NCBI GenBank assembly: GCA_016218805.1
Contig: JACRCW010000013.1
Span: 1 to 48,799 of the forward strand
Direction of reading: 5' to 3'
DNA from: Deltaproteobacteria bacterium
GTDB lineage: Bacteria; Myxococcota; JACRCW01
Length of the DNA stretch: 48,799 bases
Program-made: the position numbers and the translations under genes
Notes under the pieces: generated by a model
What the model saw: the letters and a program-made list of their open reading frames with translations, nothing else
Told to the model about the DNA's origin: nothing
Databases searched by the model: none
Shown here: positions 2,861-23,277 of the stretch, piece by piece
How positions within the stretch are numbered: position 1 is the stretch's first letter
Layout of the letters: each line of letters begins with the position of its first letter

Positions 2861-3565
2861 ATGCCCGACACCACCGCTGCCACCCGCCCCGAATCCCGCC
2901 GCGACCTCTTCCTGTGGGGTGCGGTGGCGCTGTCGCTCGCCGTGGCGCTGACGCCGTGGGGACGGCTGGCGCTCTACCCCTTCACCCTGTTCACCACCTG
3001 GGTCCATGAATGCGGCCACGCGCTGATGGCCACGTTGCTGGGCGGTGACGTTGCCAGTGTGACCATAGAGCCGGACACCTCCGGGCTGACGCGCTCCATG
3101 ACGCCGGACACGCTGGTGGTCCGCGGCCTGGTCTCCACCAGCGGCTACCTGGGTGCCAGCGTGTTCGGCTGCGTGCTGCTCGTAGCCACGCGGCTGGAGC
3201 GGCTGGCGCGGCTCATCATCTGGACACTGGGCGTGCTCATGCTGCTGTCATTGGTGTTCTGGGTGCGCAACCTGTTTGGCGCGGGCGTGGTGCTCACCTG
3301 GGGCGCTGCGCTCATCTGGCTGGGGCGCCGGGGCCACGGGGCGGTGGCGCAGTGGGTGCTGTCCCTGCTGGCCGTCCAGGTGGCGCTCAACGCGCTGTAT
3401 GACATCCGCATCCTGTTCTCCGTGTCTGACGGCCATTCGGATGCGCTGTCCATGGAGAAGCTGTTCCTGCTGCCCTACTGGTTCTGGGCCGGCGGCTGGA
3501 TGCTGGCCAGCGCGGTCATGGTGGCCGCCACCCTCTGGCTCACGCGCACGCGCCCACCCCGCTGA
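2861..3565 (+). CDS. M50B-like membrane metallopeptidase
   Basis: HECGH zinc motif in a TM helix, SGY motif, several TM helices, C-terminal HSDA. Confidence 0.85.
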   Translation: MPDTTAATRPESRRDLFLWGAVALSLAVALTPWGRLALYPFTLFTTWVHECGHALMATLLGGDVASVTIEPDTSGLTRSMTPDTLVVRGLVSTSGYLGASVFGCVLLVATRLERLARLIIWTLGVLMLLSLVFWVRNLFGAGVVLTWGAALIWLGRRGHGAVAQWVLSLLAVQVALNALYDIRILFSVSDGHSDALSMEKLFLLPYWFWAGGWMLASAVMVAATLWLTRTRPPR

Positions 3566-4773
3566 TGCGCGGCTACCTGAACCTGCCCCGCCAGGTCTGG
3601 CTGCTGGCCGTGGGGCAGGTGATCAACCGCGCGGGCGCGCTGCTCATCCCGTTTCTCGCCGTGTACCTGCGTGATCACCTCCGGTTGTCCACGGAGGCGG
3701 CCACGTTGGCGGTGGGCGCGTGGGGGCTGGGGTCCATCTTCGGGTCACTGGCCGGCGGCCAGCTGGCGGACGCGTGGAGCCGGCGCGGCACCATGCTGGT
3801 CAGCCTGTTTGGCTCCGCGGGGATCATGCTGGGGTACGCCTATTTGACCAGCGCGCCCGCCGTCATTGCCGGCACGTTCCTGCTGGCGCTGGTGGCGGAC
3901 CTGTTCCGCCCGGCGTCATCCGCCATGATCGCGGACCTGGTGGATGAGCACCAGCGCGGCCCCGCGTACGCCCTGATGTACACCGCGGTGAACCTGGGGT
4001 TCACCATGGCGCCCGTCATTGGCGGCTATCTGCTGGCCACCCACGTGCACCTGGTGTTCTGGGGTGACGCGGGCACCACGTGCCTGTTTGGCCTCATGGT
4101 CCTGGTGGCCGTGCCGGACACGCTGCCCCACCACACCGTGCGCGAGCCCGCCGCCCCGCTGCGTGATGCGCTGGTGGACATGTTCCACAACCGCCGCTTT
4201 GTCCTGTTCTGCACGGGCGCGCTGCTGACCGGGTTTGTCTTCATGCAGCACATTGCCACCCTGCCGCTGCACATGACGGCCTCCGGGATGGCGCCGCAGG
4301 TGTACGGCCGCACCATTGCGCTCAACGGCGCCATCGTCGTGCTGCTGCAGCTCCCCGTGGCCCAGTTTGCCGCGCGCCTGCCGCGCGGGGCCACGGTTGC
4401 CGCGGCCTCCATCATTGTCGGCGCCGGCTTTGGGCTGACGGCGTTTGCGTGGGATGCGTGGACGTTTGCGGCCACCATTGCGGTGTGGAGCCTGGGCGAA
4501 GTCCTGCAGATGCCGTTCATGCAGGCCATTGTCGCGGACCTGGCGCCCACGCAATTCCGCGGGCGCTACCTGGGCGTGTTCTCCCTGAGTTTCTCCGTGG
4601 CCAACACGGTGGCCACGCCGCTGGGCGGGGTGGTGTTGGCGCGCCTGGGCGGGAACTTTGTCTGGGGGGCCTGCGCGGTGACGGGGCTGCTGTCCGCGCT
4701 GTTCTTCCACGCCGCCACCCGGAAAGCCGCTGCGGGGACCGCCGCCCGTTCCGGCGCGCACTCAGGGATCTGA
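3565..4773 (+). CDS. MFS transporter
   Basis: About 12 TM segments; MFS motif A-like GQLADAWSRR; TGATG overlap with the upstream gene. Confidence 0.9.
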   Translation: MRGYLNLPRQVWLLAVGQVINRAGALLIPFLAVYLRDHLRLSTEAATLAVGAWGLGSIFGSLAGGQLADAWSRRGTMLVSLFGSAGIMLGYAYLTSAPAVIAGTFLLALVADLFRPASSAMIADLVDEHQRGPAYALMYTAVNLGFTMAPVIGGYLLATHVHLVFWGDAGTTCLFGLMVLVAVPDTLPHHTVREPAAPLRDALVDMFHNRRFVLFCTGALLTGFVFMQHIATLPLHMTASGMAPQVYGRTIALNGAIVVLLQLPVAQFAARLPRGATVAAASIIVGAGFGLTAFAWDAWTFAATIAVWSLGEVLQMPFMQAIVADLAPTQFRGRYLGVFSLSFSVANTVATPLGGVVLARLGGNFVWGACAVTGLLSALFFHAATRKAAAGTAARSGAHSGI

Positions 4774-5868
4774 GCAGCGGTGCGTGAGGACCTGGTCCTG
4801 CCCGTTCTCCATGGAATGCGTCTCCACCAGCGTCAGGGAACCGGCCTGCAGCGTTCCCTGCACGCTGGTGATGCGGGCCCCCACGGGAAGCGCCACCGCA
4901 TCCCGGAGAACGTGCGGCGCGTCCAGCACCGTCAGCACCAACTCGGTGGCAGCGCGCGCGTGGAGAATGCGGACGCGCCCCGCCGCATCCACTCCCGCCA
5001 CCAGCAGCCGGGAGTCGTCGGCGCTCACCAGTGCGGCGTCCAACTGCATCTCCGCCTGCGGGCCGGCGTTGGACGTCAGCATCATCGCGTGAAGCCTGGC
5101 GCGGTCGCCCGCCTGGCTGCGGTACACCAACCACGCGCGGCCCTGGCCGTCCACCAGCCCCGCCAGGTCCATCACGTCATCAGACGCACCGGCCCGCACG
5201 TCCACCGGCGCCCAGCCTGCGGCGCTCCAGCGGCCCGCGTAGACGGACGCGCCTACGCTGGCAGAAACCCACGTGCCGCCCACCGCGCCCGGTGCCACCG
5301 CAACCCGCGCGGGAGTTGTGGCGTGCCGCGCCGCCTCCGGCGGCAGTGCCAGGGATGTCACCTGCCAGGATCCGTCCGGGCGTTCCTCGGCCAGCCACAG
5401 TGCAATGGGGGCGCGCGTGATGAACACCACCCGCGCGGGCCCGGTGCCTTCACGGAAGTGCGCCACGTCAGCCACGTCCAGCCCGGCCGCCGCGCGCGCG
5501 GTCCCGCTCCAGGACGCGCCGTCCAGGGACCGAGCCACCTGCAGGCCGTCCACCGAATACAACGCAATCCACCCGCCCCCGTCCGCTGCGAGCGCGCCGC
5601 GCCGGCTGGCGGGTGCCGCCGGGTGCACCACGGTGGTCTGCCAGCCCTGTCCAGTCTCCACGGTGTGCTGGAGGCTGGCCGCGTTCGCCAGCAGGGCTCC
5701 CAACGCGCCGCCCGGGGACGTGGCCGCGGCCAGCACGCGCAGCGCGTCCCCCTGCTGGCGCAACTGGTCCACCCACGGCCGGCACACGGGGACGGAACTG
5801 GGGCCTCCGCCCCAACACGCCGCAGCCAACCCCCACCATCCCAACACCACCCCAATGCGCACGTTCAT
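4762..5868 (-). CDS. putative lipoprotein, possible beta-propeller
   Basis: ATG 5868 (MNVRIGVVLGWWGLAAAC, lipobox-like); repeated beta-rich units with W (GWQTTVV, RSLDGASW, DGSWQVT, DGQGRAWLVY, DAAGRVRILH); divergent from the cytochrome gene. Confidence 0.6.
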   Translation of the reverse strand: MNVRIGVVLGWWGLAAACWGGGPSSVPVCRPWVDQLRQQGDALRVLAAATSPGGALGALLANAASLQHTVETGQGWQTTVVHPAAPASRRGALAADGGGWIALYSVDGLQVARSLDGASWSGTARAAAGLDVADVAHFREGTGPARVVFITRAPIALWLAEERPDGSWQVTSLALPPEAARHATTPARVAVAPGAVGGTWVSASVGASVYAGRWSAAGWAPVDVRAGASDDVMDLAGLVDGQGRAWLVYRSQAGDRARLHAMMLTSNAGPQAEMQLDAALVSADDSRLLVAGVDAAGRVRILHARAATELVLTVLDAPHVLRDAVALPVGARITSVQGTLQAGSLTLVETHSMENGQDQVLTHRCSDP

Positions 5869-5997
5869 GCGCGCACCCTTCCAGACCGCCGTCGGGCTGA
5901 CAACGTCGGGCGCGCGCGGACGGCTGGAGCTGAGACAGGACACTTTGCCGCATCCGCCCACTGCCCGAAGGCGTGCGTCTTGACCGGAAGTCCGTGA

Positions 5998-8553
5998 TTG
6001 CCCAACTTCGCTGGCGCCGTGCACAACACCACACCAGCACCCGTGATTCCGCGGGCGGCGCGGTCCTTTCGCGCGGCGGCGACGCTGCTGCTGGTCCTGG
6101 CTCCCCAGCTGACGACGGCGCAGACGCTGTCTCCCGGCCGGCTCGGCCGCTCCCACGAAGAGCTGGAGGGCGTGGTCAACTGCACCAAATGCCATGAATT
6201 CGGCAAGAAGCTGGACGGTGACCGCTGCCTGGAATGCCATGATTCCCTGCGCAAGGAGATTGCCGCGCCGCGCGGCATGCACGCGCGCCTGGTGAAGGAT
6301 GACCGCGCGTGCCTGGAGTGCCACCACGATCACCGCGGCGTGGACGCGTCACTGACGGAGTGGGGCGGCCCGCGCGAGAAGTGGGACCACGGCAAGGCGG
6401 GGTGGCCGCTGGACGGCAAGCACGCGGAGGCCCGCTGCAAGGACTGCCATGAGCCGCGGCGGGTGACCGAGAGCGCGCTGAAGAAGCGGTTCGCGGCCGG
6501 CAAGCCGGGGACGTACCTGGGCCTGGGCCGGCGGTGCGTGGACTGCCACTTTGACGAGCACCGCGGCCAGTTCAAGGTGGCGTGCGACAAGTGCCACGGC
6601 GCCAAGGCCTTCAAGCCGGCGCCCCGGTTTGACCACGCCGCGTCCTTCCGGCTCCGCGGCGCCCACGCCACCACGGCGTGCCGGGGCTGCCACCCGCGGG
6701 TGGAGGAGCCCGCCGGGCAGGCGTTCCCGGCGCCCAAGGACCCGCGCGGCTACGTGCGCTACCACGGCGCGCCCAAGCGCTGCGTGGACTGCCACAAGGA
6801 CGTGCACAAGGGCGCCTACGGCAACGCGTGCAGCCGGTGTCACAATGAGACCGACTGGCACGCCACGCGGATTGCCTCGGCCGAGCCGCATTTCCACGAC
6901 AAGACCAACTTCCCGCTGCTGGGAAAGCACCGCAATGTGGCGTGTGACCACTGCCACCCGGGCAAGCCTGGCGGCGGCCTGCAATTGACGGGTTTTCCAT
7001 ACCAGGAATGCATGAATTGCCACGTGGACGCACACCTGGGCCAGCTCAAACCCGGACCGGACCGCCTGGTGTACTGCGAGCGTTGCCACGACGAGGAGGG
7101 GTTTGCGCCCACCACCTTCCCGCGCGCCGAGCACGAGTACACCCGGCTGCCATTGGACGGCGCACACCGCGCGGTGGCGTGTGACAGCTGCCACGCGGAG
7201 GACCGCGCGCGCTTTGCCGGGGTGGAACTGCCGCGCCGCCCGGCCGGGCGGCCGGAACGCCGCACGGACGCGGTCAGCTTTGTGGCGCTGGTGTTCCCGG
7301 ACAAGGACCCGGAGCGGTGCGATTCGTGCCACCAGGACCCGCACGCCGGACAGTTCACCCGCGGCGGCGAGCCGCGCCGCTGTGAAGCGTGCCACACCGC
7401 GGATGACTGGCGGCAGCTTCAGTTTGATCACGCGCGGGACACGGCCTTCCCGTTGCGGGGCGCGCACGCGCGCGGTGCCTGCACGTCCTGCCACGTGGCG
7501 CCCGGCGCGGCGCAGCCGGTGACCTGGCGGGGTGCGCCCGCCCGGTGCGCCTCCTGTCACGACGACGTCCACCGCGGGCAGTTCAACGCCGCCGGAGGGA
7601 ACCCGGCGGACTGCGCCCGGTGTCACGACGAGAACGCCTTCAAACCGGCCACGTTTGTGCACGCCGGCGTGTTTGACCTCAAGGGGCGCCATGCATCCGC
7701 ACGGTGCGCGGCCTGCCACCCCGCCCTCCCCGGCTCCGCCGCCGCCTGGTACCGCGGCGTCCCACGCCGCTGCGAGTCCTGCCATGCCGACTTCCACGCC
7801 GCCGGCGCCGCCGCGGTGCCCTCCGCGTCACGCGGGCCGTGCGCCGGCTGCCATGACGAGACCGACTGGCAGCGCGTGACCTTTGACCACGACAACACGC
7901 GCATGCCGCTGCGGGATGCCCACGCGGGCCAACCGTGCCGCGCGTGCCACCAGGATGCCTCCCGGCTGGCCATCGACACCGCATGCGGGTCCTGCCACGT
8001 GGACGTGCATGGCGGCCGGTTGGGGACCGAGTGCCTGCGCTGCCATGACCAGCGGACGTTCCGGTCAGGCGCGGGCGTGGAGGCGCACGCCGCCACGCGG
8101 TTCCCACTGTATGGCCGCCACGCCGTCACCCCGTGCGACCGTTGCCACGTGAACCGCGCGGACCGCACCTACGGCGGGGTGACGCCGGACTGCGCCCGCT
8201 GCCACGCGGATGACGCCGCCCGCACGGCGGGGCGCGGTGTGGATCACGCCCCGCTGGGCCCGGAACCGGACTGTCGCCGGTGCCACACCACGGTGACGTT
8301 CACCGGGGGCGTGTTGCCGGAGCATGACCGCTGCTTCAACATCTACACGGGCCCGCACCGCGGAATTGCGTGCAACCGCTGCCACACGTCACTGGCCGGT
8401 TTGGGCGTGGACAATTGCACGTCATTCACCGCCATGTGCACCCATTGCCATGCGTGCGAAAAGATGGACCGCATCCATGAACCCCGCCACGTCGTCGGCT
8501 ACCAGTGTGCCGACCGGAAATGTTACGAGTGCCATGGCCTGCGTCGTCGTTGA
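5998..8553 (+). CDS. 30-heme multiheme cytochrome c (ten triheme repeats), Sec signal peptide
   Basis: 30 CxxCH counted; repeat FDH-x-FPLxGxH-x-CxxCH...CxxCH-xDxHxG...CxxCH; signal-peptide-like AAATLLLVLAPQLTTA; start uncertain (TTG 5998, GTG 6019 or GTG 6043). Confidence 0.93.
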   Translation: MPNFAGAVHNTTPAPVIPRAARSFRAAATLLLVLAPQLTTAQTLSPGRLGRSHEELEGVVNCTKCHEFGKKLDGDRCLECHDSLRKEIAAPRGMHARLVKDDRACLECHHDHRGVDASLTEWGGPREKWDHGKAGWPLDGKHAEARCKDCHEPRRVTESALKKRFAAGKPGTYLGLGRRCVDCHFDEHRGQFKVACDKCHGAKAFKPAPRFDHAASFRLRGAHATTACRGCHPRVEEPAGQAFPAPKDPRGYVRYHGAPKRCVDCHKDVHKGAYGNACSRCHNETDWHATRIASAEPHFHDKTNFPLLGKHRNVACDHCHPGKPGGGLQLTGFPYQECMNCHVDAHLGQLKPGPDRLVYCERCHDEEGFAPTTFPRAEHEYTRLPLDGAHRAVACDSCHAEDRARFAGVELPRRPAGRPERRTDAVSFVALVFPDKDPERCDSCHQDPHAGQFTRGGEPRRCEACHTADDWRQLQFDHARDTAFPLRGAHARGACTSCHVAPGAAQPVTWRGAPARCASCHDDVHRGQFNAAGGNPADCARCHDENAFKPATFVHAGVFDLKGRHASARCAACHPALPGSAAAWYRGVPRRCESCHADFHAAGAAAVPSASRGPCAGCHDETDWQRVTFDHDNTRMPLRDAHAGQPCRACHQDASRLAIDTACGSCHVDVHGGRLGTECLRCHDQRTFRSGAGVEAHAATRFPLYGRHAVTPCDRCHVNRADRTYGGVTPDCARCHADDAARTAGRGVDHAPLGPEPDCRRCHTTVTFTGGVLPEHDRCFNIYTGPHRGIACNRCHTSLAGLGVDNCTSFTAMCTHCHACEKMDRIHEPRHVVGYQCADRKCYECHGLRRR

Positions 8554-10234
8554 ACGGGCCGCACGCGCGCCCTGGTGGATGGTCCTGCTGCTTGCGCTCG
8601 CCGCGGCGGCGCCGGCACAGGCCGGACGGACGGTGAAGACGGAGGTGCGGTTTGTCCATCCGGAGGCGGTGTACCTGGGAGCCGGGCGCGAGGACGGGCT
8701 GCGGCCCGGCCAGATTGGTGAGGTGATCCGGCAGGGCCGCCGCGTGGCGCGCGTCCGCATTGAAGCCGTTGCCGCGCACCGCGCCATGGCCGCGCCTGAG
8801 GGGGATTTCCGCGCGCGCCGGGGTGACGTGGTGCGCATCACGGACGCCGCGCCACCGCCGGCGCCGCGCGCTGCTGCTCCGCCCGGGGCCGGGCCGGGGC
8901 GTGCGCCCGCGCCTGCCCGCGTGGCAGCCGCCGGCATCCCGTTCCCCCTGGTGCGTGACCGCGCGCGCCCGGGGCGGCCGTGGCGACGGCGCGCGCAGGC
9001 ATTCCTGTCCACGGACGGCTGGGCGTACCTGGGCGGGAGCCAGCCGGCCGTGACCGGGCGCGCCCGCCTGCTGCTGCGCATGGACCTCCCGCTGGACAGC
9101 CGGGACCGCCTGCACGCCACGGTGCACGCGCACCTGGTGACGCAACCGCTGGTGCTGGAAGGCGGCGCGCTGCAGCCCGCCAGCGTGTTCTGGACGGAAG
9201 TCTACGAAGCCGCGCTGGCCTGGCGCCCCGGCGGGGGCGTGGAGCTGGGCGCCGGGCGCGCGCCCGCACCCGGGCTTCGCTACGGGCTGGTGGACGGGAT
9301 CTTTGTGGGTTGGCGGTTCCATGACGCGCTGGCGCTGCGCGTGTCCGTGGGCGAGCGCGCCGACCTGGTGACGCTGCTGCCCGGGCTGGAGCGCCCGGTG
9401 CTGGCCGGTTCCGCCGACGGCGTGGTCCGCGGTGGTTGGGGCGCGCTGGGCTACCGGGCCGCGCTGTCCTGGCTGGGGCGGGACGTGGTGGCGGTGGAGG
9501 GAGCGGAGGCCTCCGGGCACTTCCTGCTGGAGCTGGCGCGCCTGCTGTGGGTGGACGGGGATGTGGCGGCGGTGGCGTGGGTGCCCCGCGGCGGCGCGCT
9601 GCCGGGGGTGACGTTGGAGCGGCTGGGCCTGGCGGCCACCGCGCGGCAGGGGCCGCTGTCCGTACGCGGCTATGGGCGCCGCCACGCAAGCGCCGGCCTG
9701 ACGTCTGAGTTGTCACGCCCGCCCGCCGGGTACCTGCCCGGCCAGCCGTTCTTTGAAGTGGGCGCGTCCTCCAGCCTGGCGCTGGGAACGCGCTGGGCGG
9801 GCGCGGTGGAGCTGGATGCCGGCGGCGTCTGGGACCCGAGCCACGCGCGCGACCGCATCTACCTGGTGCCGCAGGTGCGCGGCCGGCTGCTCCCGTTGTG
9901 GAGCCTGAGCGCGCGCGCGGCCTACCGCGCCGAGTTGGGGTCCACGGGCGCGCAGCTGGCGTCCTTTGCGGTGGATGCGGAGCCGGTGGCCGGTGCGCGT
10001 GTGTCTTTGTGGCAGCAGGGGGGCGTGATCATTGTCCAGGACGGTCCCGCCCTGGAGGACGTGCTGGTGGACCGCGGCACGCGCCGCGTCCTGTGGACGT
10101 ACGCCTGGGCCGCCACCGCGGACTACCGGATGCTGGGCGTGCTGGTGACCGGGGTGCGCACGCGCGGCCTCTACGGCACGGCGGGCAAGGGCATTGAGCT
10201 GGGTGCCTTTGTGGGGACGGACCGCCTGCCGTGA
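8534..10234 (+). CDS. putative outer-membrane beta-barrel with N-terminal FlgT_C-like domain
   Basis: Signal peptide (VLLLALAAAAPAQA); VYLGAGREDGLRPGQ...VARVRIEAV resembles FlgT C-terminal domains; Pro/Ala linker followed by many amphipathic strands (VYEAALAWR, VELGAGR, VDGIFVGWRF, WSLSARAAYRAE); overlaps the cytochrome stop; alternative start ATG 8579. Confidence 0.6.
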   Translation: MACVVVERAARAPWWMVLLLALAAAAPAQAGRTVKTEVRFVHPEAVYLGAGREDGLRPGQIGEVIRQGRRVARVRIEAVAAHRAMAAPEGDFRARRGDVVRITDAAPPPAPRAAAPPGAGPGRAPAPARVAAAGIPFPLVRDRARPGRPWRRRAQAFLSTDGWAYLGGSQPAVTGRARLLLRMDLPLDSRDRLHATVHAHLVTQPLVLEGGALQPASVFWTEVYEAALAWRPGGGVELGAGRAPAPGLRYGLVDGIFVGWRFHDALALRVSVGERADLVTLLPGLERPVLAGSADGVVRGGWGALGYRAALSWLGRDVVAVEGAEASGHFLLELARLLWVDGDVAAVAWVPRGGALPGVTLERLGLAATARQGPLSVRGYGRRHASAGLTSELSRPPAGYLPGQPFFEVGASSSLALGTRWAGAVELDAGGVWDPSHARDRIYLVPQVRGRLLPLWSLSARAAYRAELGSTGAQLASFAVDAEPVAGARVSLWQQGGVIIVQDGPALEDVLVDRGTRRVLWTYAWAATADYRMLGVLVTGVRTRGLYGTAGKGIELGAFVGTDRLP

Positions 10235-10252
10235 CGCGGTGACCCGCGCGCC

Positions 10253-11017
10253 TCAACGGCCGCGCGGCCGGGCGGGCTTGCGGGCGGGCGGCGGGGCCTC
10301 CTCGGGCTCGTTCCCCACCACGTCGTCTTCGTCAAACTCCCGGGGCTCCGGGGCGCGGGCGGCGGCCTTGCGGGACCGCGGGGCCGGCGGCTGCTTCACC
10401 GCCGCATTGTGGCGCGCCACCACGTCCGCGGCCACGGCGTCATCCCACGCCCGGGACGCCGCGGCCGCGCGCAGCGTTTCCGGGTCCACGGCGTCCGGGC
10501 GGAACACCTGCCAGGCCCACGGCACGGCGGCCACCAGCAGCGTGAAGGTCCCCACCACCATGCCCGCCACGCCGCCAAACAGGATGAACAACGCCTCCGC
10601 AAACACGCGCCCCAGCACGGGCTGCTGCGCCGGCACCACCCGCGCCAGGGACAATCCCCACAGCGCACCACCCAGCACCGCCGCCACCCCGCCCCCCAAC
10701 AGCATGCCCCCCGCCACCACCAGGACGCCCACGCGGCCCACGTTATCCCGCAGGATGGTCAGCGGCTGGGCGGGAGGGCGCGCCAGCGCGGGGAGCCGCG
10801 CCTGCAGGCCCACGTCACGCAGCCCGTCACCTACCGTGACTTCCGTGCCGTCCGCCCGCAGCACGCGGGTCTCACGCCGCGTGCCGCCGTCCTCCGTGGG
10901 CACCTGGACGGCGGCCTTCTTCCACGGGCGCGCGGTGTCCGCGTGCGCGTGCGGGACAGCAAGGAGCAGCGCAACCAGCGCGGCGGCGGGCCGGGAAAGG
11001 CAGAGGTTGTGGGTCAT
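10253..11017 (-). CDS. hypothetical membrane protein
   Basis: Signal peptide (ALLLAVPHAHA), two Gly-rich TM helices, charged Pro-rich tail. Confidence 0.7.
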   Translation of the reverse strand: MTHNLCLSRPAAALVALLLAVPHAHADTARPWKKAAVQVPTEDGGTRRETRVLRADGTEVTVGDGLRDVGLQARLPALARPPAQPLTILRDNVGRVGVLVVAGGMLLGGGVAAVLGGALWGLSLARVVPAQQPVLGRVFAEALFILFGGVAGMVVGTFTLLVAAVPWAWQVFRPDAVDPETLRAAAASRAWDDAVAADVVARHNAAVKQPPAPRSRKAAARAPEPREFDEDDVVGNEPEEAPPPARKPARPRGR

Positions 11018-11097
11018 GTCGGCAGCGGATTTAGGGCGCCGCGCGCGCGCACGCGTCGGACGTCCGTCCGACCCGACACAGCGCGCCTGCGGCGGAC

Positions 11098-13881
11098 TCA
11101 GCCATCATGACAGGTGGCGCAGCCCGGGCTGGCGTAGGAGTTGAACCCGCCGCGCGCAATGTGGCGCAGCTCCTCCGTGGACTTCTTGTGCTTGTGGCAC
11201 TTGAGGCACGCGTACTGCTGCCAATCCACCGCCCACGGCTTGTCCGCCCGCATGGCCGTGTGCACCTGCGTGTTGCGCGCGCTGCCGGACCCGCTCTGCC
11301 CGTAGCACGCTGAGGACGCCAGGCAGGCGTCCAGGTCGCTGTGGCACTCGCGGCAGCTGGAGCCCTCATGGGAGGTGGAGAACGCGGAATGGCGGGACAC
11401 GCTGGGCGTGGTGCCCTCCGCGTGGCACGCCTTGCAGTCCGCGTTGGCGTCCACGTAGTCCCGCACGCGCCCGTGGCTGGACGCCGGCCGGCCCACGACG
11501 CTGGTGGGGACCTGGGCGTGGCATTCGCGGCAGTTGTTCTGCGTGCGGTCCGTCCGGCTGGCGTGGCACGCCGTGCACTGCGTCTGGTTGGCGCCCACCA
11601 TGGCCAGGTAGTTGGTGGACCCGTGCGCCGTGCCCGGCCCAATGGGGAACAGTGCGGCGTGGTCCATGGGCCCCACGCGTTCCGAATTGGGATGACACTG
11701 GTAGCAGGCCAGTGACGCGTTGGCGTACGCGGGAACGCCCGCGTGCAGCTGGTCCGGCGTGGGGTTGGTGTTCACCGTGGCGTTGTGACACTGCGCGCAT
11801 TGCAGGCCGTTCACGTCATTGCGCGGCCCGGCGCCGTGGCACCCCGAACACGCCACCGATCCGTGCGCGCTCCCCGTGGCGATGGGGAACTGCGTGTGCG
11901 CGATGTTGGCGGAGGCCTCGCCATTGGGGTGGCAGTCCAGGCAGGCGCTGCTGTTCCACGCGTACGAATCCACGCCCGTGTGGATGGCGGCCAGCCGGGG
12001 CTCGCCGTGCACGTCACGCGGGCCGGCGCCGTTGCCGTCATCCGTCTGCTGGTGGCAGCCGGTGCAACCCAACGTGCCGCGCGTGAAGTCCCCGGACACC
12101 GTGTGGCAGTCCGCACATGCCAGGGCGCCCCCGTTGCTGGCCAGCGCGTGGGTCCGGCCCGCACCAATGGGGAACCACGTGTGGTCCAGGCTGGTCAGCG
12201 CGGACTCCGCCGTCCCGTCGGTATGGCACGAGATGCACACGCGTGGGCTCCACACGTAACCCGGCAGGTTGCCGTGCACGTCGGCCAGGCGCGGCTCGCC
12301 GTGGACTTCGCGCGGATCCGCCGCGCTGGTGGCCTGGTGGCACGCGGTGCACTGCAGTGAACCCACCCGGTCCATCCGGGAAGCGTGGCAATCCACGCAC
12401 TGCAGCGCCTGGTGTTGCCCGTTCCCTGACGGCGGCAGCAGCGGCCAGATGGGCTCATGATCAAATGCGCCCGGCACCTGGGACGTCCGGTGGCAGCCAA
12501 AGCACGCGCTGGAATCAAACGAATAGCCGTGCCGGCTCATCTCCGGTCCGTGGTCCGCCGCGGACGTGGTGGAATCATGGCGGTGACAGGACACGCACGC
12601 CAATTGCCGCCGGTCCAGCTTGCTCACGTGGCACTCCGCGCAGCGCAGGCCGTCAACGCCCTGCGTGGTGGGGCTATCCAGCGCGTGCGTCTGTCCCCGC
12701 GCCACGGGGAAGAACGTGTGGTTCAACCGTTTCTGGCCGCCCAGGTGGCAGAACACGCACGCGGCGTTGTCCCAGGAATAGTCGGGAAACACGCCATGGG
12801 TCGGCTGCATCACGTCCCGCGCGTGCGCGTGGCAGCTGACGCAGGTGACATTCCGCTGGGACGCGGGGTCCTGGTGGCAGGTGGCGCACTCCACCGTGAC
12901 CGGGGGAATCGCATCCGCGGGGTCGTCGTCCAGGGGGCGGCCCAGCGCGTGGACGGCTCCCGCGCCAATGGGAAGGAACCGGTCATGCTCCATGACGCCG
13001 GGCACCTGCGAGCGCTGGTGGCACGCAAAGCACGCATTGGATTCCCACACGTAGCCCGCCACGGCGCCGGCCTGGTGCGCCGCGGCCATGGCCGCCTCGC
13101 CGTGCGCGTCCTGGCCGCCCACCGGCGTGTGGCAGTTGATGCACGCCAGCGCGCGGTGGTCCTGCCGGTTCTCATGACAGTCCGCGCACGTGGTGCCCAC
13201 CTCCCCGTGGCGCGTGCCCGGGCCAATGGGAAACGCCGGCTCGTGATCAAGCGCGCCGGGCACCTGGGACTGCGCGTGGCAGCCCAGGCACCCGGCCGTG
13301 TCCCACCGGTACCCCAGGTCCGCCATGTCCGTGCCGTGCACGGCCAGCATGGGCGCCACGTCGTGGTCCGGCTGCAGGTCGCCGTTGTCATCGCGGTGAC
13401 AGCCGGTGCAGGTCACCTGGCTGCGCGAACTGCCGGTGTGACACTCCGCGCACCCCAGCGCGCCGTGCGCCGTCCCGGTGGTGATGGGGAAGTACCCGTG
13501 TGAGTTCCGCGAGATTTCGCCGGCTTCGCCGCCCGGGTGGCAGCGCAGGCATGCGGGGGATTCCCACGTGTAGTCCGCGTTGCCCGCGTGCACGGCGTCC
13601 ATGCCCGCGCGCCCGTCCGGATCCACGCCGTCACGGCGGTGTTCGTGGCAGGACACGCAGCGGAATGCGGTGAATGATTCGCCGGTGCCGTGACAGGAAG
13701 CGCACGTCAGGGGGCCATCATGGGCGGTGCGCCCCAGCGCGTGCACGGCGTCGGACCCCACGGGGAACCAGCCGTGATCGGCAGGGCGCAGGCCCTCCAG
13801 GTCACTGGCTGCACGGGGCGTGCAAGCGGACAGGGCACAGAGAAGGACCGGCACGCAGCCGGCCACACGCGCGCGAATCAT
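11098..13881 (-). CDS. 30-heme multiheme cytochrome c lipoprotein (ten triheme repeats)
   Basis: 30 CxxCH counted; lipobox-like VLLCALSAC; repeat H-x-FPIxxGxxH...CxxCH...CxxCH...H...YxW-x4-CxxCH; start ATG 13881 or GTG 13896. Confidence 0.93.
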   Translation of the reverse strand: MIRARVAGCVPVLLCALSACTPRAASDLEGLRPADHGWFPVGSDAVHALGRTAHDGPLTCASCHGTGESFTAFRCVSCHEHRRDGVDPDGRAGMDAVHAGNADYTWESPACLRCHPGGEAGEISRNSHGYFPITTGTAHGALGCAECHTGSSRSQVTCTGCHRDDNGDLQPDHDVAPMLAVHGTDMADLGYRWDTAGCLGCHAQSQVPGALDHEPAFPIGPGTRHGEVGTTCADCHENRQDHRALACINCHTPVGGQDAHGEAAMAAAHQAGAVAGYVWESNACFACHQRSQVPGVMEHDRFLPIGAGAVHALGRPLDDDPADAIPPVTVECATCHQDPASQRNVTCVSCHAHARDVMQPTHGVFPDYSWDNAACVFCHLGGQKRLNHTFFPVARGQTHALDSPTTQGVDGLRCAECHVSKLDRRQLACVSCHRHDSTTSAADHGPEMSRHGYSFDSSACFGCHRTSQVPGAFDHEPIWPLLPPSGNGQHQALQCVDCHASRMDRVGSLQCTACHQATSAADPREVHGEPRLADVHGNLPGYVWSPRVCISCHTDGTAESALTSLDHTWFPIGAGRTHALASNGGALACADCHTVSGDFTRGTLGCTGCHQQTDDGNGAGPRDVHGEPRLAAIHTGVDSYAWNSSACLDCHPNGEASANIAHTQFPIATGSAHGSVACSGCHGAGPRNDVNGLQCAQCHNATVNTNPTPDQLHAGVPAYANASLACYQCHPNSERVGPMDHAALFPIGPGTAHGSTNYLAMVGANQTQCTACHASRTDRTQNNCRECHAQVPTSVVGRPASSHGRVRDYVDANADCKACHAEGTTPSVSRHSAFSTSHEGSSCRECHSDLDACLASSACYGQSGSGSARNTQVHTAMRADKPWAVDWQQYACLKCHKHKKSTEELRHIARGGFNSYASPGCATCHDG

Positions 13882-13979
13882 GCGTGGAAGCTCCACCAGG
13901 GTCAGTTTGGTGTGCGCACGCTAGCGGCCTGGGGAACGCCGGGATTCGGTCAACGGGCGGATGCCGCGCAACCGCGTTG

Positions 13980-16655
13980 TCAGCCGCGCGCCCAGCCTTT
14001 CCACGCTGCCAGCAGGTTGAGCGCCTGCAGCGGGGTCACGTTGTTCACGTCCACGGACTGCAACTCCGTCAGGATGCGCTGCAGCCGGGGATCCACCGCG
14101 GCGGCCTCCGCCGGCGCGCTCCCGTCATCAAACAGGCCAAGCTGCGGGGTGGTGCGCGCCTTTCTGAGCCGCGGGGACCGGGGCGCTTGCTCTTCCGCCG
14201 CCGCCCCGGTCTCCAGCCCCTGCAGCACGTCCCGCGCGCGGCGCAACACGCTCTCCGGGAGCCCCGCCAGCCGCGCCACCTGGATGCCGTAGGACCGCTC
14301 CGCCGGCCCTTCCAGGATCTTGCGGAGGAAGATGACGCGGTCCTCCCACTCCTTGGCTGCGGCGTGCACACTGCGGACGCGCGGCAGCTGCCGGCTCAGC
14401 TCGGTGAGCTCATGGTAGTGCGTGGCGAACAGCGCCCGCGCCTTCACCTGGTCATGCAGGTGCTCCACGATGGCCCACGCGAGCGCGAGCCCGTCGTACG
14501 TGCTGGTGCCGCGGCCGATCTCATCCAGCAGCACCAGGGACTGCGGCGTGGCGTCCCGCAGGATGCGCGATGTCTCCAGCATCTCCACCATGAACGTGGA
14601 TTGCCCGGAGAGAATGTCGTCGGACGCGCCCATGCGCGTGAAGATGCGGTCGGTCAGGGCCAGCTCCGCGCGGTCCGCGGGCACAAAGGACCCTGCCTGC
14701 GCCAGCACCTGCAGCAGCGCCACCATGCGCATGGCGGTGCTCTTGCCCGCCATGTTGGGGCCGGTGACCAGCAGGACCTGCCGCGCGTCGGCAGACAGGT
14801 GCATGTCGTTGGGGACAAACGGCTCACCCAGCTCGCGCTCGCGGGTCTCCAGCACCGGGTGGCGGCCTCCCTCAATCACCAGCGGCAGCCCGGGTGACGA
14901 TGACGGGTCCACCATCCGCGGGCGGACGTAGCGGCGCTGCTCGGCCACCTCCGCAAAGCCCATCAGCGCGTCCAGCCGCGCCACCTGGTCCGCCAACGCC
15001 AGCACCTGCGCCGCGCGCCCTGCCACCCGGGACCGCAGCGCCACAAACAGCTCCTCCTCCAGCGCCAGCCGCTGTTCCTCGGCGTGCGCCAGCTTCTCCT
15101 CCAGCTCTTTGAGTTCCGTGGTGAAGTACCGCTCGCCGTTGGCCACCGTCTGCTTGCGGATGTAGTGCGGCGGCACCTTGGCCAGGTGCGTCCGCGTCAC
15201 CTCCAGGAAATACCCAAACACCCGGCTGTACCCGACCTTGAGGCTGGGAATACCGGTCTTCTGCCGCTCTTCGGCTTCCAGCGCGGCCACGCGGTCGCGC
15301 GCGTTTTCGTGCAGGGAACGCAACTCATCCAGCCCGGCGTGGTACCCGGGCCGGATCACCCCGCCGTCGCGTGCCAGCGGCGGCGGGCGGTCCACCAGCG
15401 CGCCCGCCAGTTCATCCGCCAGTTCCTCCAGCGCGGACAGCCCCGCGCCGTGCGCGGCCACCGCGTCGTCGCGCGCCAGCGTCTCCTCCACCGCGGGCAG
15501 GGCCAGCAGGCTGTCCCGCACCGCGCCCAGGTCTTTGGGGGACGCCACGCCCGCCGCCGCGCGCGCCACCAGGCGCTCCAGGTCCGCCACGCGCGCCAGC
15601 TCCTCGCGCGCCTGCGCCCGCAATGACGGGCGCTGCAGGAACGCCTCCACCGCCCCGTGCCGCTCCTCCACCACCGCCAGCTGCCGTGACGGCGCCAGCA
15701 GCCAGGACGCCACGCGCCGGCTGCCCATCACGGTGACGGACGCATCCACCACGCTCAGCAGGCTCCCCGGGCGTTTGAGATCGCGCTGGGTGCGTACAAG
15801 CTCCAAATGCCCCACGGTGAGTTCGTCCAGCAGCAGCTGTTCCTCCAGCGCGTAGTGCGCCATGGCCCGCACGTGCGCCGTGGACGTCGGGGCCAGTTCG
15901 CGGACGTAGGACCACAGCCCGTGCGCCGCCGCGCGCGCAGCGCCGTCACCCGCCGCCGCGTCACCCAGTGCTTCGGGGAGATCCGTGCGCCACTCGTCGG
16001 GGTGCGTGCGCTCTTCCACGCGGCGCCCGCTGCGCGGCGCACCCAGCACGTCCGTGCGGGTGCCGGGCGGGAGGACCACCTCACGCGGATCACGGCGGGA
16101 CAGCTCCGCCAGCGCGTTGGCGCGGTCCGCCGCGGAGGTTGCCAGGAAGCTGCCGGAGGTCAGGTCCAGGAATGCCAGGCCCCAGCGCTCCCGCCCCGCC
16201 CCTGGACGAAGCGCCGCCACGTAGGACGCCGCGCGCGCGTCCAGGCTCTCATCGTCCAGCACCGTGCCCGGCGTGACCACGCGCGTGATGCCCCGCTTCA
16301 CAATCCCCTTGGCAACCTTGGGGTCCTCCAACTGGTCGCACACGGAGACCTTGAGTCCCGCGGCAATCAGGCGCGCCAGGTTGGGTGCCAGCGCGTGCAC
16401 GGGGAAGCCCGCCATCGGCACCGCGTCGTCGCCCTTGTCCTTGTCACGCGTCGTCAGCGTGAGGTCCAGCACCTGCGCACACCGCCGTGCGTCGTCGTGG
16501 AACGTCTCGTAGAAGTCCCCCATGTGGAACAGCAGCAGTGCGTCGGGGTGCTGCTCCTTGGCCTCAAAGTACTGCCGCATCATGGGCGACAGGTTGGCGG
16601 CGGCGATGGGCGCGCGCGGAGCGGGCGTGGGCGGGTCAGCCGTGGTGCTCGTCAT
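13980..16655 (-). CDS. mutS: DNA mismatch repair protein MutS
   Basis: SPMMRQY, GDFYETF mismatch-binding motif, TGPNMAGKST Walker A, STFMVEM, LLDEIGRGT, SYGIQVA, QLGLF clamp motif. Confidence 0.98.
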   Translation of the reverse strand: MTSTTADPPTPAPRAPIAAANLSPMMRQYFEAKEQHPDALLLFHMGDFYETFHDDARRCAQVLDLTLTTRDKDKGDDAVPMAGFPVHALAPNLARLIAAGLKVSVCDQLEDPKVAKGIVKRGITRVVTPGTVLDDESLDARAASYVAALRPGAGRERWGLAFLDLTSGSFLATSAADRANALAELSRRDPREVVLPPGTRTDVLGAPRSGRRVEERTHPDEWRTDLPEALGDAAAGDGAARAAAHGLWSYVRELAPTSTAHVRAMAHYALEEQLLLDELTVGHLELVRTQRDLKRPGSLLSVVDASVTVMGSRRVASWLLAPSRQLAVVEERHGAVEAFLQRPSLRAQAREELARVADLERLVARAAAGVASPKDLGAVRDSLLALPAVEETLARDDAVAAHGAGLSALEELADELAGALVDRPPPLARDGGVIRPGYHAGLDELRSLHENARDRVAALEAEERQKTGIPSLKVGYSRVFGYFLEVTRTHLAKVPPHYIRKQTVANGERYFTTELKELEEKLAHAEEQRLALEEELFVALRSRVAGRAAQVLALADQVARLDALMGFAEVAEQRRYVRPRMVDPSSSPGLPLVIEGGRHPVLETRERELGEPFVPNDMHLSADARQVLLVTGPNMAGKSTAMRMVALLQVLAQAGSFVPADRAELALTDRIFTRMGASDDILSGQSTFMVEMLETSRILRDATPQSLVLLDEIGRGTSTYDGLALAWAIVEHLHDQVKARALFATHYHELTELSRQLPRVRSVHAAAKEWEDRVIFLRKILEGPAERSYGIQVARLAGLPESVLRRARDVLQGLETGAAAEEQAPRSPRLRKARTTPQLGLFDDGSAPAEAAAVDPRLQRILTELQSVDVNNVTPLQALNLLAAWKGWARG

Positions 16656-17167: not shown

Positions 17168-19831
17168 TCAGACCCGCAGGTCCCGCACCAGCACACCGCT
17201 CACCAGGTCCAGCACCAGCACCGTCCCGCGGTCATCCCCCAGGCACAGCGCGTGGCCCATCAACCGCGCACAGGCGCGCTTGCGCCCGTCAAGGAAGAAC
17301 TCCGCCCGAGGTTGCACCTCCGCCGCATCCCACAGCGTCACCTGCACGCCCGCCGCCACGCTCACCCCCGTCACCACCCACTGCGGATTGGCTTCCAGCA
17401 GCACCAGCCCGGCTCCGGGCGCGCTGACCGTGCGCTCAATCATCCTGCCACGCAGCCAGCGCAGTTGCAGGACCAGCGCAGTGGCGTCGTCGTCAGACGC
17501 GCGCCGCACCACCGCCAGTTGCGCGTTGGCCGTCACCCGCGCCGCCAACGCGACCTCTGGCAGCGGAACCTCCAGCCGGTCCCGCAACACCATGCCCGGC
17601 TGTTCGTACCGCCACACGGTGGACTCCAGTCCCGCCAGGAACGCCAGTGACAGGTTGCTCCGCGCCACGTCCAACACCGCGCCCGTGCCGCGTCCCCCCA
17701 CGTCGGGCACGCGCCACGCCACACGCGCGCGGTCCGCCCCCAGGTCCAGCGCCCACAGGTCGTGCCCGCGGCCCACCATCCACCACGCGCCGTCATGCGT
17801 GGTGGCAAACGCCGTCAGCGCCTCCTCCAGCCACGGCGCGGCACGCCCCGTCCGGAAGTCCACCCGCGTCGCGCGCCAGCGGTCCCTGTCCAGCTGCCGC
17901 ACGGCCAGCGCCCGGTCGCCGTGATCGGAAAGCACCCAACGCGTGGCGGGTTCGTCCACCGCCAGCGCGGTCCGCCCCCGCCGCGACAGGACGCGCACGC
18001 CCAGCGCATCCAGCGCCACCGCCACCCGGCCGTCCGGCAGCAGCGCCACGTCGTGCACCGGCGTGCTGCCAGAGTCGCTGGCGGCACAGTTGAACACCCG
18101 TGGCTCAGCGCGGGCCGGCAGCCACTCGCCTTTCTTCGCCGGCAGGGACGGGGCATCCGCGCGCAGGGCGGCGTCCCCCGTGGCCGTCACGAGTGCGCGG
18201 AAGACGGAATTGGCCAGCACCAGCCGCCCCTCCTGCACGTCCTGCCAGGCGGCCCGTACCAGTGCGCGCGCCAGCACCCGGCCCGCAGCCGTCTCCTTGA
18301 GCGTCGCCAGCGCCGCCACGCGCGCTGCCGGCGCGGTGGCATCGTCGTCCGCAGCCAGGGCGGTCACCCGCAGCTTCACGCTGTCAAACAGCGCCGGGTC
18401 CAGCTCCAGCAGGCGTCCCAGCGCCGTGGCGCCCGCCTCCCCGCCTCCCTCCACCGCGCGTTGCAGCCAGTCTTTCGCCAGCCTCCGCAGCGTTGGGACC
18501 TCCCACACCACGGCCACCGCGCGCAGCGTGTCCCCCGCGTCCGCCAGCGCGGACGCCCACAGGACCCGCAGCGCGGCCGCCTGCGTGGCGTCCGTCTTCT
18601 CCAGGCGCGCCACCGCGTCGGCAAACGCCCCACTGCGCCTGGCCACGTCCACGGCGCGCTCCACATCACCGGCAATGAACAGTTGCCGCACCACCAGGCC
18701 GGGCGGGAGGCCGCGCGCCTCGGCCAGCTCCGCAGCCAGCTTGAGCCGGCCGTGCTTCTCCAGGAACGCCACGGCCTCGTGCGCGTCGCCCAGCAGCTCG
18801 GCCAGGATGAACGCCGCCTCATCCAGCCGCCCCAGCCCCACCAGGCGCTCAAACGCGGCGCGGTACATGCGCCGCATGTAGTCATACACGTCCGGTCCCA
18901 GGGCCATGGAGGACGACGCGGCCCCGCGCCACGGCGCAATGGACAGGTCTGCGCGCGGAGACGGCAGGCCCCAGCTCCAGCCCGTCCCGCCGGCGCTCTC
19001 ACCGCCCAGCGGGATGGCGTGCCGCAGCGCCTCCCCCAGTTCCCCGCGCTCAAACATTTCCGCCAGCCGCGCCAGGTACGCCGCGTAGCGCCGCCCCACC
19101 AGCGCTCCCAGGCTGCTGCGCGCCACCACGCCATCCAGCCACCGCCCCAGGCGCTGCAGCCAGGCGGGGGGAGGAAGCGCCTGCACGTGGACAGGGTGTG
19201 CCTTGCCCGTACGCGCCGGCAGCAGGGACCGCAGCGCGCGCACCACGGACAGCAGCAGCCGGTCCACCGTTCCCAGCTGGACCACGCGCGGCCCGTCGGC
19301 GCGGTGGCGGAGCTGCTCGGCCAGTTCCACGGCGGACGGCGCCATGGGCGGGATCCCGCCCAGCTTTTCGCGCAGGTCCACCGCCGGCGGCGGCCGCTCC
19401 GGCTCCGGGGCGGCGGGCGCGGCCAGTGGCGCCACGTCGGCAACGTGCACCCGGCCCAACGACACCCACCCGGACACGTCCACCACTGCGCCGGGACGGA
19501 GCGCCATGGCCTCCCCGGCGCGCACCAGCACCACGCAACCCGCCGCCGCCTCCAGGTCCGCGCGCTCCGCCGCGGCCAGCGGCGCGCCCCACAGCACGTC
19601 CGCCTGCTCCACCAGCGGCACGCCGGCGCCCAGCTCCGCGTCCACGGCGCTCACGCGCGGCCAGCGCACCAGGTACCCGCCGGCCAGCTCCGTGACCGTG
19701 GCACCCGCGCACCACGCCGCCAGCACGGCGCGCCGGGCCGCGTCGTCGCCCGCCAGCGCGCGGTCAAACCAGCGTGCCCGCGCCTGCACGCGCCCGCGGT
19801 GGGCCAGCCGCCGGGGACGGACCGCGGTCAC
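17168..19831 (-). CDS. bpX6-domain/helical/beta-propeller component of a MoxR-vWA-beta-propeller ternary system
   Basis: N-terminal VRPRRLAHRG..A..WFD..AR..VLAAW pattern recalled as bpX6; central EALRHAIPLG and AAFILAELL helical repeats; C-terminal WD40-like blades; GTGA overlap with the upstream gene. Confidence 0.75.
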   Translation of the reverse strand: MTAVRPRRLAHRGRVQARARWFDRALAGDDAARRAVLAAWCAGATVTELAGGYLVRWPRVSAVDAELGAGVPLVEQADVLWGAPLAAAERADLEAAAGCVVLVRAGEAMALRPGAVVDVSGWVSLGRVHVADVAPLAAPAAPEPERPPPAVDLREKLGGIPPMAPSAVELAEQLRHRADGPRVVQLGTVDRLLLSVVRALRSLLPARTGKAHPVHVQALPPPAWLQRLGRWLDGVVARSSLGALVGRRYAAYLARLAEMFERGELGEALRHAIPLGGESAGGTGWSWGLPSPRADLSIAPWRGAASSSMALGPDVYDYMRRMYRAAFERLVGLGRLDEAAFILAELLGDAHEAVAFLEKHGRLKLAAELAEARGLPPGLVVRQLFIAGDVERAVDVARRSGAFADAVARLEKTDATQAAALRVLWASALADAGDTLRAVAVVWEVPTLRRLAKDWLQRAVEGGGEAGATALGRLLELDPALFDSVKLRVTALAADDDATAPAARVAALATLKETAAGRVLARALVRAAWQDVQEGRLVLANSVFRALVTATGDAALRADAPSLPAKKGEWLPARAEPRVFNCAASDSGSTPVHDVALLPDGRVAVALDALGVRVLSRRGRTALAVDEPATRWVLSDHGDRALAVRQLDRDRWRATRVDFRTGRAAPWLEEALTAFATTHDGAWWMVGRGHDLWALDLGADRARVAWRVPDVGGRGTGAVLDVARSNLSLAFLAGLESTVWRYEQPGMVLRDRLEVPLPEVALAARVTANAQLAVVRRASDDDATALVLQLRWLRGRMIERTVSAPGAGLVLLEANPQWVVTGVSVAAGVQVTLWDAAEVQPRAEFFLDGRKRACARLMGHALCLGDDRGTVLVLDLVSGVLVRDLRV

Positions 19832-21567: not shown

Positions 21568-21571
21568 GTGG

Positions 21572-21994
21572 TCACCCGGCGCCCAGGAAGGCGCGCAGCG
21601 CGTCCGCCTCCACCGTCCAGGCGCGCCCCAACGGGAACACCCGCACGCCGCCCTCCGCCGGCACCACCGCCGCCGGGAGCGCCGCGTGGCGCGCCACCGC
21701 GTGGGCCACCAGGGCCGGCGCCAGGTCGGGCTGCAGCGGGGTGGGCACGTACAGGGATTCCGCGCCCTCGCACTTTGCCAGGTAGCGCGCGCCGTCCACC
21801 CACGGGAGGCGCTCCGGCTCACCCAGCAGGACCAGGGCCCCGCCGCCGCCCACCCCGCGAAGGCCCGCGCAGCGCGCCGGTTCCGCCAGCAGCAGCGCCG
21901 CCAGCGCGCGCGCCGCCGCCCCCTCCGCCCACACGGCGCACGGCGCCCCCGGCACCTCCCGCTCCACCCACCCCACCCGCCACGCCCCCGTCAC
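21572..21994 (-). CDS. bpX5-like small protein of the MoxR ternary system
   Basis: GTGA overlap with the MoxR stop; W..RE.P, LVLLG...LPWVDGARYL, LYVPT...P motifs recalled as bpX5. Confidence 0.7.
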   Translation of the reverse strand: MTGAWRVGWVEREVPGAPCAVWAEGAAARALAALLLAEPARCAGLRGVGGGGALVLLGEPERLPWVDGARYLAKCEGAESLYVPTPLQPDLAPALVAHAVARHAALPAAVVPAEGGVRVFPLGRAWTVEADALRAFLGAG

Positions 21995-23142: not shown

Positions 23143-23277
23143 GGGGCGGGGATGCTAGGTCAGCGCGCGGGCGGCGCCCCGGCGCCCGTGACCCCGTGAC
23201 GGCAGTTGCGCGTCCCACACGGCGCTGCTACACGCGCCACCCCTCCGCCTCGGGGCGGTGACCTTCCGGAGCTTCCC

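Follow-up and report, generated by a model that had tools for sequence, protein, structure and literature searches.

Two 30-heme cytochromes and a 22-strand barrel candidate as the probable outer part of a PCC3-type electron conduit in a Myxococcota-like bacterium

The PCC3 conduits combine a porin with extracellular and periplasmic cytochromes that have median contents of 34 and 21 hemes and reach up to 85 (He et al. 2017, PMC5566968; here and below, published systems are described after the accessible parts of the papers cited). Their inner-membrane protein (IMP) carries an SGXXG motif and two WX3HX13H motifs, the Leptothrix porin has 22 predicted strands, and the published residue/heme ratios are 26–27 (PMC5566968). 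The same work defined PCC3 in iron oxidizers, modeled it as running inward, and put the idea of a molecular wire into print. Periplasmic heme counts of 21, 24, and 27 and the idea of a capacitor are found in Hoover et al. (2023, PMC10734462), while a Burkholderiales cluster with 24- and 49-heme cytochromes and a porin has been called a wire and/or capacitor (Arbour et al. 2020, PMC7399161). Conduits of the PCC3 type occur widely, and their function is putative, PCC3 being described as "functionally unverified" (10.1101/2025.02.27.639646). In the ES-1 bacterium (cluster Slit_1446-1449), the IMP, the periplasmic cytochrome, and the porin are produced, and for the extracellular cytochrome the published table gives a score of 0 under every condition (PMC12016527).

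The window considered here is the whole stretch of 48,799 nucleotides analyzed (contig JACRCW010000013.1 of assembly GCA_016218805.1; the host genome is referred to as G000). It encodes two multiheme cytochromes, P0001 and P0003, and a barrel candidate, P0002 (Table 1). Each cytochrome holds exactly 30 CxxCH motifs, as the first-pass annotation of this DNA had counted, and the maximum in shuffles of their residues (n = 2000) was 3 for P0001 and 4 for P0003. The annotated overlap of the cytochrome and barrel genes is also present, with 20 nt shared between the P0001 end and the frame from the first ATG of P0002, although a codon-usage model favors ATG 8579 as the P0002 start, with which the overlap would vanish, and GTG 6043 as the start of P0001. 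The P0003 gene is convergent with the P0001–P0002 pair; directly upstream of it, on the same strand and with 99 bases between, lies mutS (13980-16655, minus strand). The signal peptides and lipoboxes of the window proteins were judged by eye and hydropathy only, among them the lipoboxes LSAC of P0003 (Cys20) and AAAC of the 4762..5868 product.

Table 1. Genes of the locus, with positions in the window
Feature	Position	Strand	Length	Remarks
P0001, predicted periplasmic 30-heme cytochrome c	5998..8553	+	851 aa	
P0002, barrel candidate	8534..10234	+	566 aa	open frame
P0003, 30-heme lipoprotein cytochrome c	11098..13881	-	927 aa	
Flanking gene, membrane protein	10253..11017	-	254 aa	signal-like start and two predicted membrane helices (hydropathy); downstream of P0003
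Flanking gene, predicted lipoprotein	4762..5868	-		divergent from P0001

The region 3000..14529 is tiled, with zero differing letters, by contigs of one public groundwater run (X1), the pieces listed leaving one 20-base gap at 13616..13635, and single contigs of this run cover 3000..6202 and 6173..11212. The run is possibly the source sample, and the tiling therefore checks the assembly only. The host had been proposed to be Myxococcota-like, with which 12 MYXO-CTERM matches in G000 fit, an indirect indication of the phylum.

The proposal that P0002 is an outer-membrane barrel is borne out by its AlphaFold2 model (107 sequences, pLDDT 88.3). In this model, a predicted signal peptide and a small N-terminal beta domain (residues 32-105) precede a 22-strand barrel (residues 153-562), to which the domain is joined by a low-confidence flexible linker. 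The top fold matches are all outer-membrane barrels, with a Z of 19.6 for SusC (rmsd 4.9, 366 aligned) and of 15.4 for MtrB (rmsd 5.9, 353 aligned), and Foldseek gives a TM of at most 0.42 by query. Judging from the model, no solved barrel stands out, from which a new fold does not follow. At the sequence level, P0002 matches no Pfam or NCBIfam family at E 0.1, ten barrel homologs are annotated only as "hypothetical protein", and the barrel profile searched against PDB sequences has MtrB at the top but weakly (E 0.0074). A TonB-dependent receptor was considered and rejected: the best fold matches span the barrel only (residues 148-566), and no plug or receptor family was found in P0002 or in 35 aligned members.

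The construction of P0001 was analyzed with two 3-heme module profiles, A and B, built from other genomes. The protein consists of a 3-heme N-terminal cap, eight 3-heme A modules, and one terminal 3-heme B module; it has eight repeats and 28 residues per heme. In the part holding the last nine hemes, nine non-motif His and two extra Cys are invariant in 39 of 39 sequences. The conserved non-motif His counts suggest that the P0001 hemes are bis-His ligated, and the two Cys may form one disulfide. The later A modules score 24–34 bits against 52–72 for the others with the family profile, which was built from first modules only. P0001 is the fused form of a 20-heme plus 10-heme gene pair of the relatives, and its heme number is, by sequence comparison, unremarkable within the family because the best 120 long homologs of its last modules hold 31–81 hemes. 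The PDB sequence matches of the cytochromes (28pb, flavocytochrome c3, and MtrA) are weak and CxxCH-driven and were not taken as homology.

The contact between cytochrome and barrel was modeled for P0002 with residues 625-851 of P0001 and four hemes. The complex score is 0.76, with 0.00 for the best of three controls; among solved complexes 116 of 157 attain the mark used, among mismatched pairs 2 of 215, counts that apply only roughly here. The runs share at least 43% of contacts, the partner pLDDT is at least 65, and the contacts involve alternate residues of most P0002 strands and residues 668-774 of P0001. Since the contacts alternate along most of the barrel strands, the C-terminal part of P0001 apparently lies in the P0002 lumen. 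Hemes 23-27 would then be in the lumen and the B module would emerge outside, although only four of the nine hemes were included in the model, from which the direction of insertion is not certain. The pass may also reflect likeness to the solved MtrAB.

P0003 is made of ten 3-heme B modules, the last two of which are weak (20 and 11 bits), and no A module in it scores above 12 bits; it has 31 residues per heme. A single-sequence AlphaFold2 model reached a pLDDT of 29.8. The protein is homologous to lipoproteins with 7–14 hemes whose genes immediately precede that of the barrel in relatives and in a second copy of the system in G000, and one relative locus (L042) has, directly upstream of the barrel, a full-length 29-heme ortholog with 39.6% identity. 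P0003 is thus, by sequence, an expanded form of the relatives' 7–14-heme lipoprotein, and it is the probable surface component.

The second copy, on contig C54 (26530-31679, L005), encodes on one strand a 33-heme cytochrome, a 9-heme lipoprotein, and a barrel, without an entry gene of the kind discussed below. It shows 43% and 37% identity to the window system, and both copies are intact. A third locus, on C89 (23712-28564, L006), has a third A-module cytochrome, of 30 hemes; the gene after it encodes an unrelated 740-aa barrel-like protein, for which the barrel profile gives no match.

Word-based searches for barrel homologs gave almost no matches, whereas a profile search collected 978 representative proteins at E 0.001 or better. 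Within the phylum, at least 59 of 301 genomes have a barrel match, and look-alike clusters in the ESM Atlas come most often from Acidobacteriota, Planctomycetota, Rhodothermota, Bacteroidota, Gemmatimonadota, and Myxococcota. Wide stretches were examined for 44 of 65 barrel matches and contain a strong barrel in 43 cases; the synteny count leaves out L078 (a false barrel locus) and L006 (a different barrel). Multiheme cytochrome genes lie at most 1.5 kb from the barrel in 25 of 29 loci. This conserved linkage in relatives, together with the co-directional second copy in the same genome, supports the expected co-occurrence of the three genes.

The usual gene order is flavoprotein, 20-heme and 10-heme cytochromes (or a fused 30-heme one), an optional 7–14-heme lipoprotein, and barrel. 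By hand count, the periplasmic wire has exactly 30 hemes in 34 of the 43 barrel loci; the remaining wires have 33, 36, or 29 hemes, one is broken into three frames, and five are cut by the stretch or unlabeled. Many relatives have no surface cytochrome within the examined stretch, one locus (L057) has two extra B modules fused onto the C-terminus of the wire, and two loci (L042 and L045) have the parts distributed among divergent or rearranged units. On a plasmid of Emticicia oligotrophica DSM 17448 (NC_018749) the whole cassette is present (ccsA, a 281-aa membrane protein, flavoprotein, 23- and 40-heme cytochromes, and barrel); the plasmid matches are either this full cluster or porin-less IMP clusters. 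Among the latter, a Methylophaga plasmid (NZ_CP095734.1, L080) encodes an Fe-S protein, a related membrane protein, and a small cytochrome beside ccm genes, and seven Alteromonas macleodii plasmids encode membrane proteins similar to that of L080. Two further loci (L047:3-7130 and L060:1-4480) encode very long cytochromes, truncated by the ends of the stretches, with at least 55 and 42 CxxCH, respectively, adjoining the barrel. In a 1368-aa frame (P0280), an Fe-S/FAD oxidoreductase runs on into a 37-heme cytochrome, and the two parts are separated by a second signal-like stretch; the frame represents either a natural fusion or a missed stop.

The flavoprotein of the relatives combines a membrane-anchored 2x[4Fe-4S]/FAD/NAD(P)H oxidoreductase and a membrane domain in one polypeptide, and it lies within the stretch in 37 of the 43 barrel loci. 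The membrane domain carries two WX3HX13H motifs in 34 of 35 aligned copies and S/TGxxG in all; this inner-membrane domain is of the di-heme b kind and in most cases forms one protein with the Fe-S/FAD NAD(P)H oxidoreductase. Three of the six loci without the flavoprotein are at contig ends, with the gene present elsewhere in the genome, one has a separate upstream membrane protein, and two are those of G000. Counting genomes, the membrane domain is present in 54 of the 58 other barrel-positive ones. The four misses, cross-read by hand, are the weakest barrel matches (E 2.4e-5 or worse), and one of them, L078, was checked and has no cytochrome nearby.

In G000, the entry module was not found by protein search, HMM, or motif scan, and there is no partial match on any contig. 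The upstream position is assembled and filled by other genes at all three long-cytochrome loci, 4762..5868 occupying the position of the relatives' flavoprotein/inner-membrane gene in the window. In a genome of the same family (G001), a 666-aa protein with two WX3HX13H motifs directly precedes the ortholog of the C89 cytochrome, and G000 has none there. From these sequence comparisons, G000 appears to be without an inner-membrane entry module, an absence that is not proven in a genome 92.4% complete and in 170 contigs.

The locus shares with PCC3 the heme-rich, repeat-built periplasmic cytochrome and the adjacent gene for a porin modeled with 22 strands, the 30-heme lipoprotein P0003 being a candidate for the extracellular cytochrome, and the periplasmic counts of 21, 24, and 27 hemes continue as 30, 33, and 36 in the barrel family. 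The likeness extends in the relatives to the two WX3HX13H motifs and to the order IMP, periplasmic cytochrome, outer cytochrome, and porin. Peptides reported for ES-1 fit as well, as judged by eye and with motifs chosen after the peptides were known. The sole detected peptide of Slit_1447 fits the A-module motif F.H..TGF.L, which occurs in 31 of 39 family members and in 1 of 44163 genome ORFs, that one being a paralog. For Slit_1449, a peptide fits G..DG[ILVA]..G[WYF].F of P0002 (4 of 107 family members, 1 of 3936 genome ORFs), and a peptide fits Q-x5-TDR of the Emticicia barrel, a motif found in 0 of 107 family members. There are also differences: P0002 has 566 residues and a small N-terminal beta domain, whereas the ES-1 porin has 862 and is TPR-annotated; P0003 is predicted to be lipid-anchored, with its 31 residues per heme, in contrast to the 936-aa outer cytochrome of ES-1; the host is Myxococcota-like rather than one of the Proteobacteria; and the relatives' Fe-S/FAD oxidoreductase is absent from the PCC3 descriptions compared, as far as their accessible text goes. 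The window system is probably built from PCC3-family parts and does not amount to a new type of system. It would work like PCC3, but no IMP was found in the window locus or in G000, and we do not file it as a PCC3 member.

The same three-part logic is found in MtrCAB of Shewanella (PDB 6r2q), but P0002 has no MtrB_PioB or TIGR match, other barrels outscore MtrB in fold comparison, and the two cytochromes, with 30 hemes each, reach 42 and 39 bits with TIGR03508 (DmsE/MtrA decaheme) against a cut-off of 192. An identity with MtrCAB, MtoAB, or PioAB was therefore rejected, there being no MtrB/PioB-family porin and cytochrome scores far below the decaheme cut-offs. The Pcc conduit OmaB-OmbB-OmcB (Shi et al. 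2014, PMC4245776) likewise combines a porin with periplasmic and outer cytochromes, but its periplasmic cytochromes have at most 14 hemes, and those of Anaeromyxobacter have 338–344 residues. The cluster of Arbour et al. (PMC7399161) is similar in the wire/capacitor idea. By their descriptions, the peat EET1-4 clusters (8–13 hemes) and a ghost-rock group with ferredoxin-NADP reductase (decahemes of 4–5 kb) were set apart. A third ghost-rock group (>20 motifs) and 606 lake clusters may include the barrel-cytochrome family, and so may the figures or supplements of 10.64898/2026.05.27.727921, PMC13264449, and 10.1101/2022.03.26.485925.

In view of this literature, two points of the first-pass annotation have to be revised. 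It had called the conduit undescribed, whereas the trio is linked to published PCC3 by its gene content, its heme counts, and peptide motifs; and it had set the 30 hemes against 8–12 per cytochrome in known conduits, a contrast that does not hold beside the PCC3 medians and the published 24+49-heme cluster. The wire or capacitor role that it suggested was already in print. In a literature search that reached few subscription papers, no paper was found that treats PCC3 and Myxococcota together or PCC3 with Anaeromyxobacter, Bacteroidota, porin, and cytochrome, and among the papers listed for PCC3 in combination with ferredoxin, flavoprotein, and NADH none mentions PCC3. What the present analysis adds is the modeled cytochrome–barrel contact, the two-module account of the wire, the wide presence of the system and the fixed 30-heme wire length in the phylum, and the observation that G000 seems to have lost the entry module.

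The barrel model, the complex model, the conserved linkage, and the co-directional C54 paralog agree with the three-part porin–cytochrome conduit proposed earlier, and we consider it highly likely that the trio has the architecture of a trans-envelope electron conduit. The three genes would constitute the outer part of a PCC3-type system. P0001, as a Sec-exported chain of 3-heme modules, would insert its C-terminal modules into the 22-strand barrel, as in the model, with its last B-type module probably emerging at the cell surface. There it could hand electrons to the lipid-anchored P0003, built from the same B module, which may extend the reach of the chain or store charge. The weakest steps are those at the two ends, where the periplasmic end of P0001 would be fed by quinol-oxidizing complexes encoded elsewhere in the genome and the electrons would exit to Fe/Mn oxides or humic acceptors. 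Feeding by quinol complexes is the most likely option given that no di-heme b/flavoprotein entry module of the usual kind was found. Candidate quinol-side donors are encoded on contigs C146 (L107 and L108) and C151 (L109) of G000: a multiheme+cytochrome b561 protein, whose gene is accompanied by 3- and 12-heme genes and a two-component pair, a Rieske/cytochrome b/octaheme operon, and an NrfD/Fe-S/tetraheme set. Neither ferric reductase (PF01794) nor, over the cut-off, NapC/NirT is matched in G000. For the full reading, a three-gene outer conduit that is quinol-fed and carries electrons outward, we see about an even chance.

The feeding step could also be explained by an ordinary flavoprotein-fed PCC3-like system whose entry gene falls in the unassembled 8% of the genome, the chain then being NAD(P)H, FAD, 2x[4Fe-4S], two b hemes, wire, barrel, and lipoprotein. 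The frequency of the flavoprotein in barrel loci and of the membrane domain in barrel-positive genomes argues for it, as do the paired WX3HX13H motifs, and the split or rearranged parts in L042 and L045 make an unlinked entry gene possible. With the entry gene adjacent at none of the three G000 loci, no partial match on any contig, and the entry-type gene kept by G001 before the C89 ortholog but not by G000, this explanation seems unlikely. If the entry module is instead truly absent, the conduit could be what remains after entry-gene loss, an orphaned relic or a heme capacitor serving storage only. Such a role is consistent with the inverted lipoprotein gene and with the lower scores of the later A modules, obtained with a profile from first modules only; it is very improbable in view of the intact frames, the conserved count of 30 hemes, and the two intact copies, whose 43% and 37% identity fits long retention.

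The direction of transfer raises a different question. Electrons from Fe(II), minerals, or partners could run inward to quinone or terminal oxidases, as modeled for PCC3 in iron oxidizers (PMC5566968), and the production of IMP, periplasmic cytochrome, and porin by ES-1 (PMC12016527) is in line with this. G000 encodes two heme-copper oxidase subunits over the cut-off, which would fit electron uptake as well, and a bc-type complex. On the other side stand the zero score of the ES-1 extracellular cytochrome in the accessible table (PMC12016527) and the NAD(P)H-type flavoprotein of the relatives, which suggests an outward source. MtrC-like decahemes are typical of reducers, and G000 has three MtrC/OmcA-like ones (C16, C48, and C154; L093, L097, and L110), one with a collagen-like repeat; the MtrB family (PF11854) was not found in this genome. 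An inward conduit appears quite improbable to us.

The outward, quinol-fed reading can be extended, tentatively and with some doubt, to a picture in which the 30-heme wire and barrel form a fixed-length plug-in module fed by varied inner-membrane donors. The donor might be NAD(P)H via the fused Fe-S/FAD/di-heme b enzyme in most Myxococcota-like genomes, perhaps a separate membrane protein in some, and conceivably general quinol-oxidizing complexes in the G000 lineage, which may have dropped the entry gene, kept two copies, and expanded the lipoprotein to 30 hemes. If this were true, G000 would offer a natural experiment on the dependence of PCC3 conduits on a dedicated entry module. A genuine absence of that module would mean that the conduit is separable from its usual donor, a point relevant to a role in respiration, redox balance, or uptake.

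A putatively propeller-like lipoprotein and a membrane protein had been noted as flanking the cluster. Both are real-looking ORFs by the codon-usage model, their products match no Pfam or NCBIfam family, and no homolog of either was found in the 44 other stretches examined, so that on sequence grounds the two genes are not taken as conserved parts of the conduit. Elsewhere in the window (17168-23154, minus strand) lies a MoxR-vWA-beta-propeller ternary system, with bpMoxR, bpX5, an unmatched 579-aa frame, and bpX6. G000 has 38 frames with three or more CxxCH and ResB/CcsA heme maturation genes. On C165 (2624-21074, L112), it also encodes a 14-heme NHL-repeat cytochrome and a 19-heme PKD/NHL cytochrome of ~2600 residues, accompanied by a separate ResB/CcsA set and by a gene for a B12 radical SAM protein.
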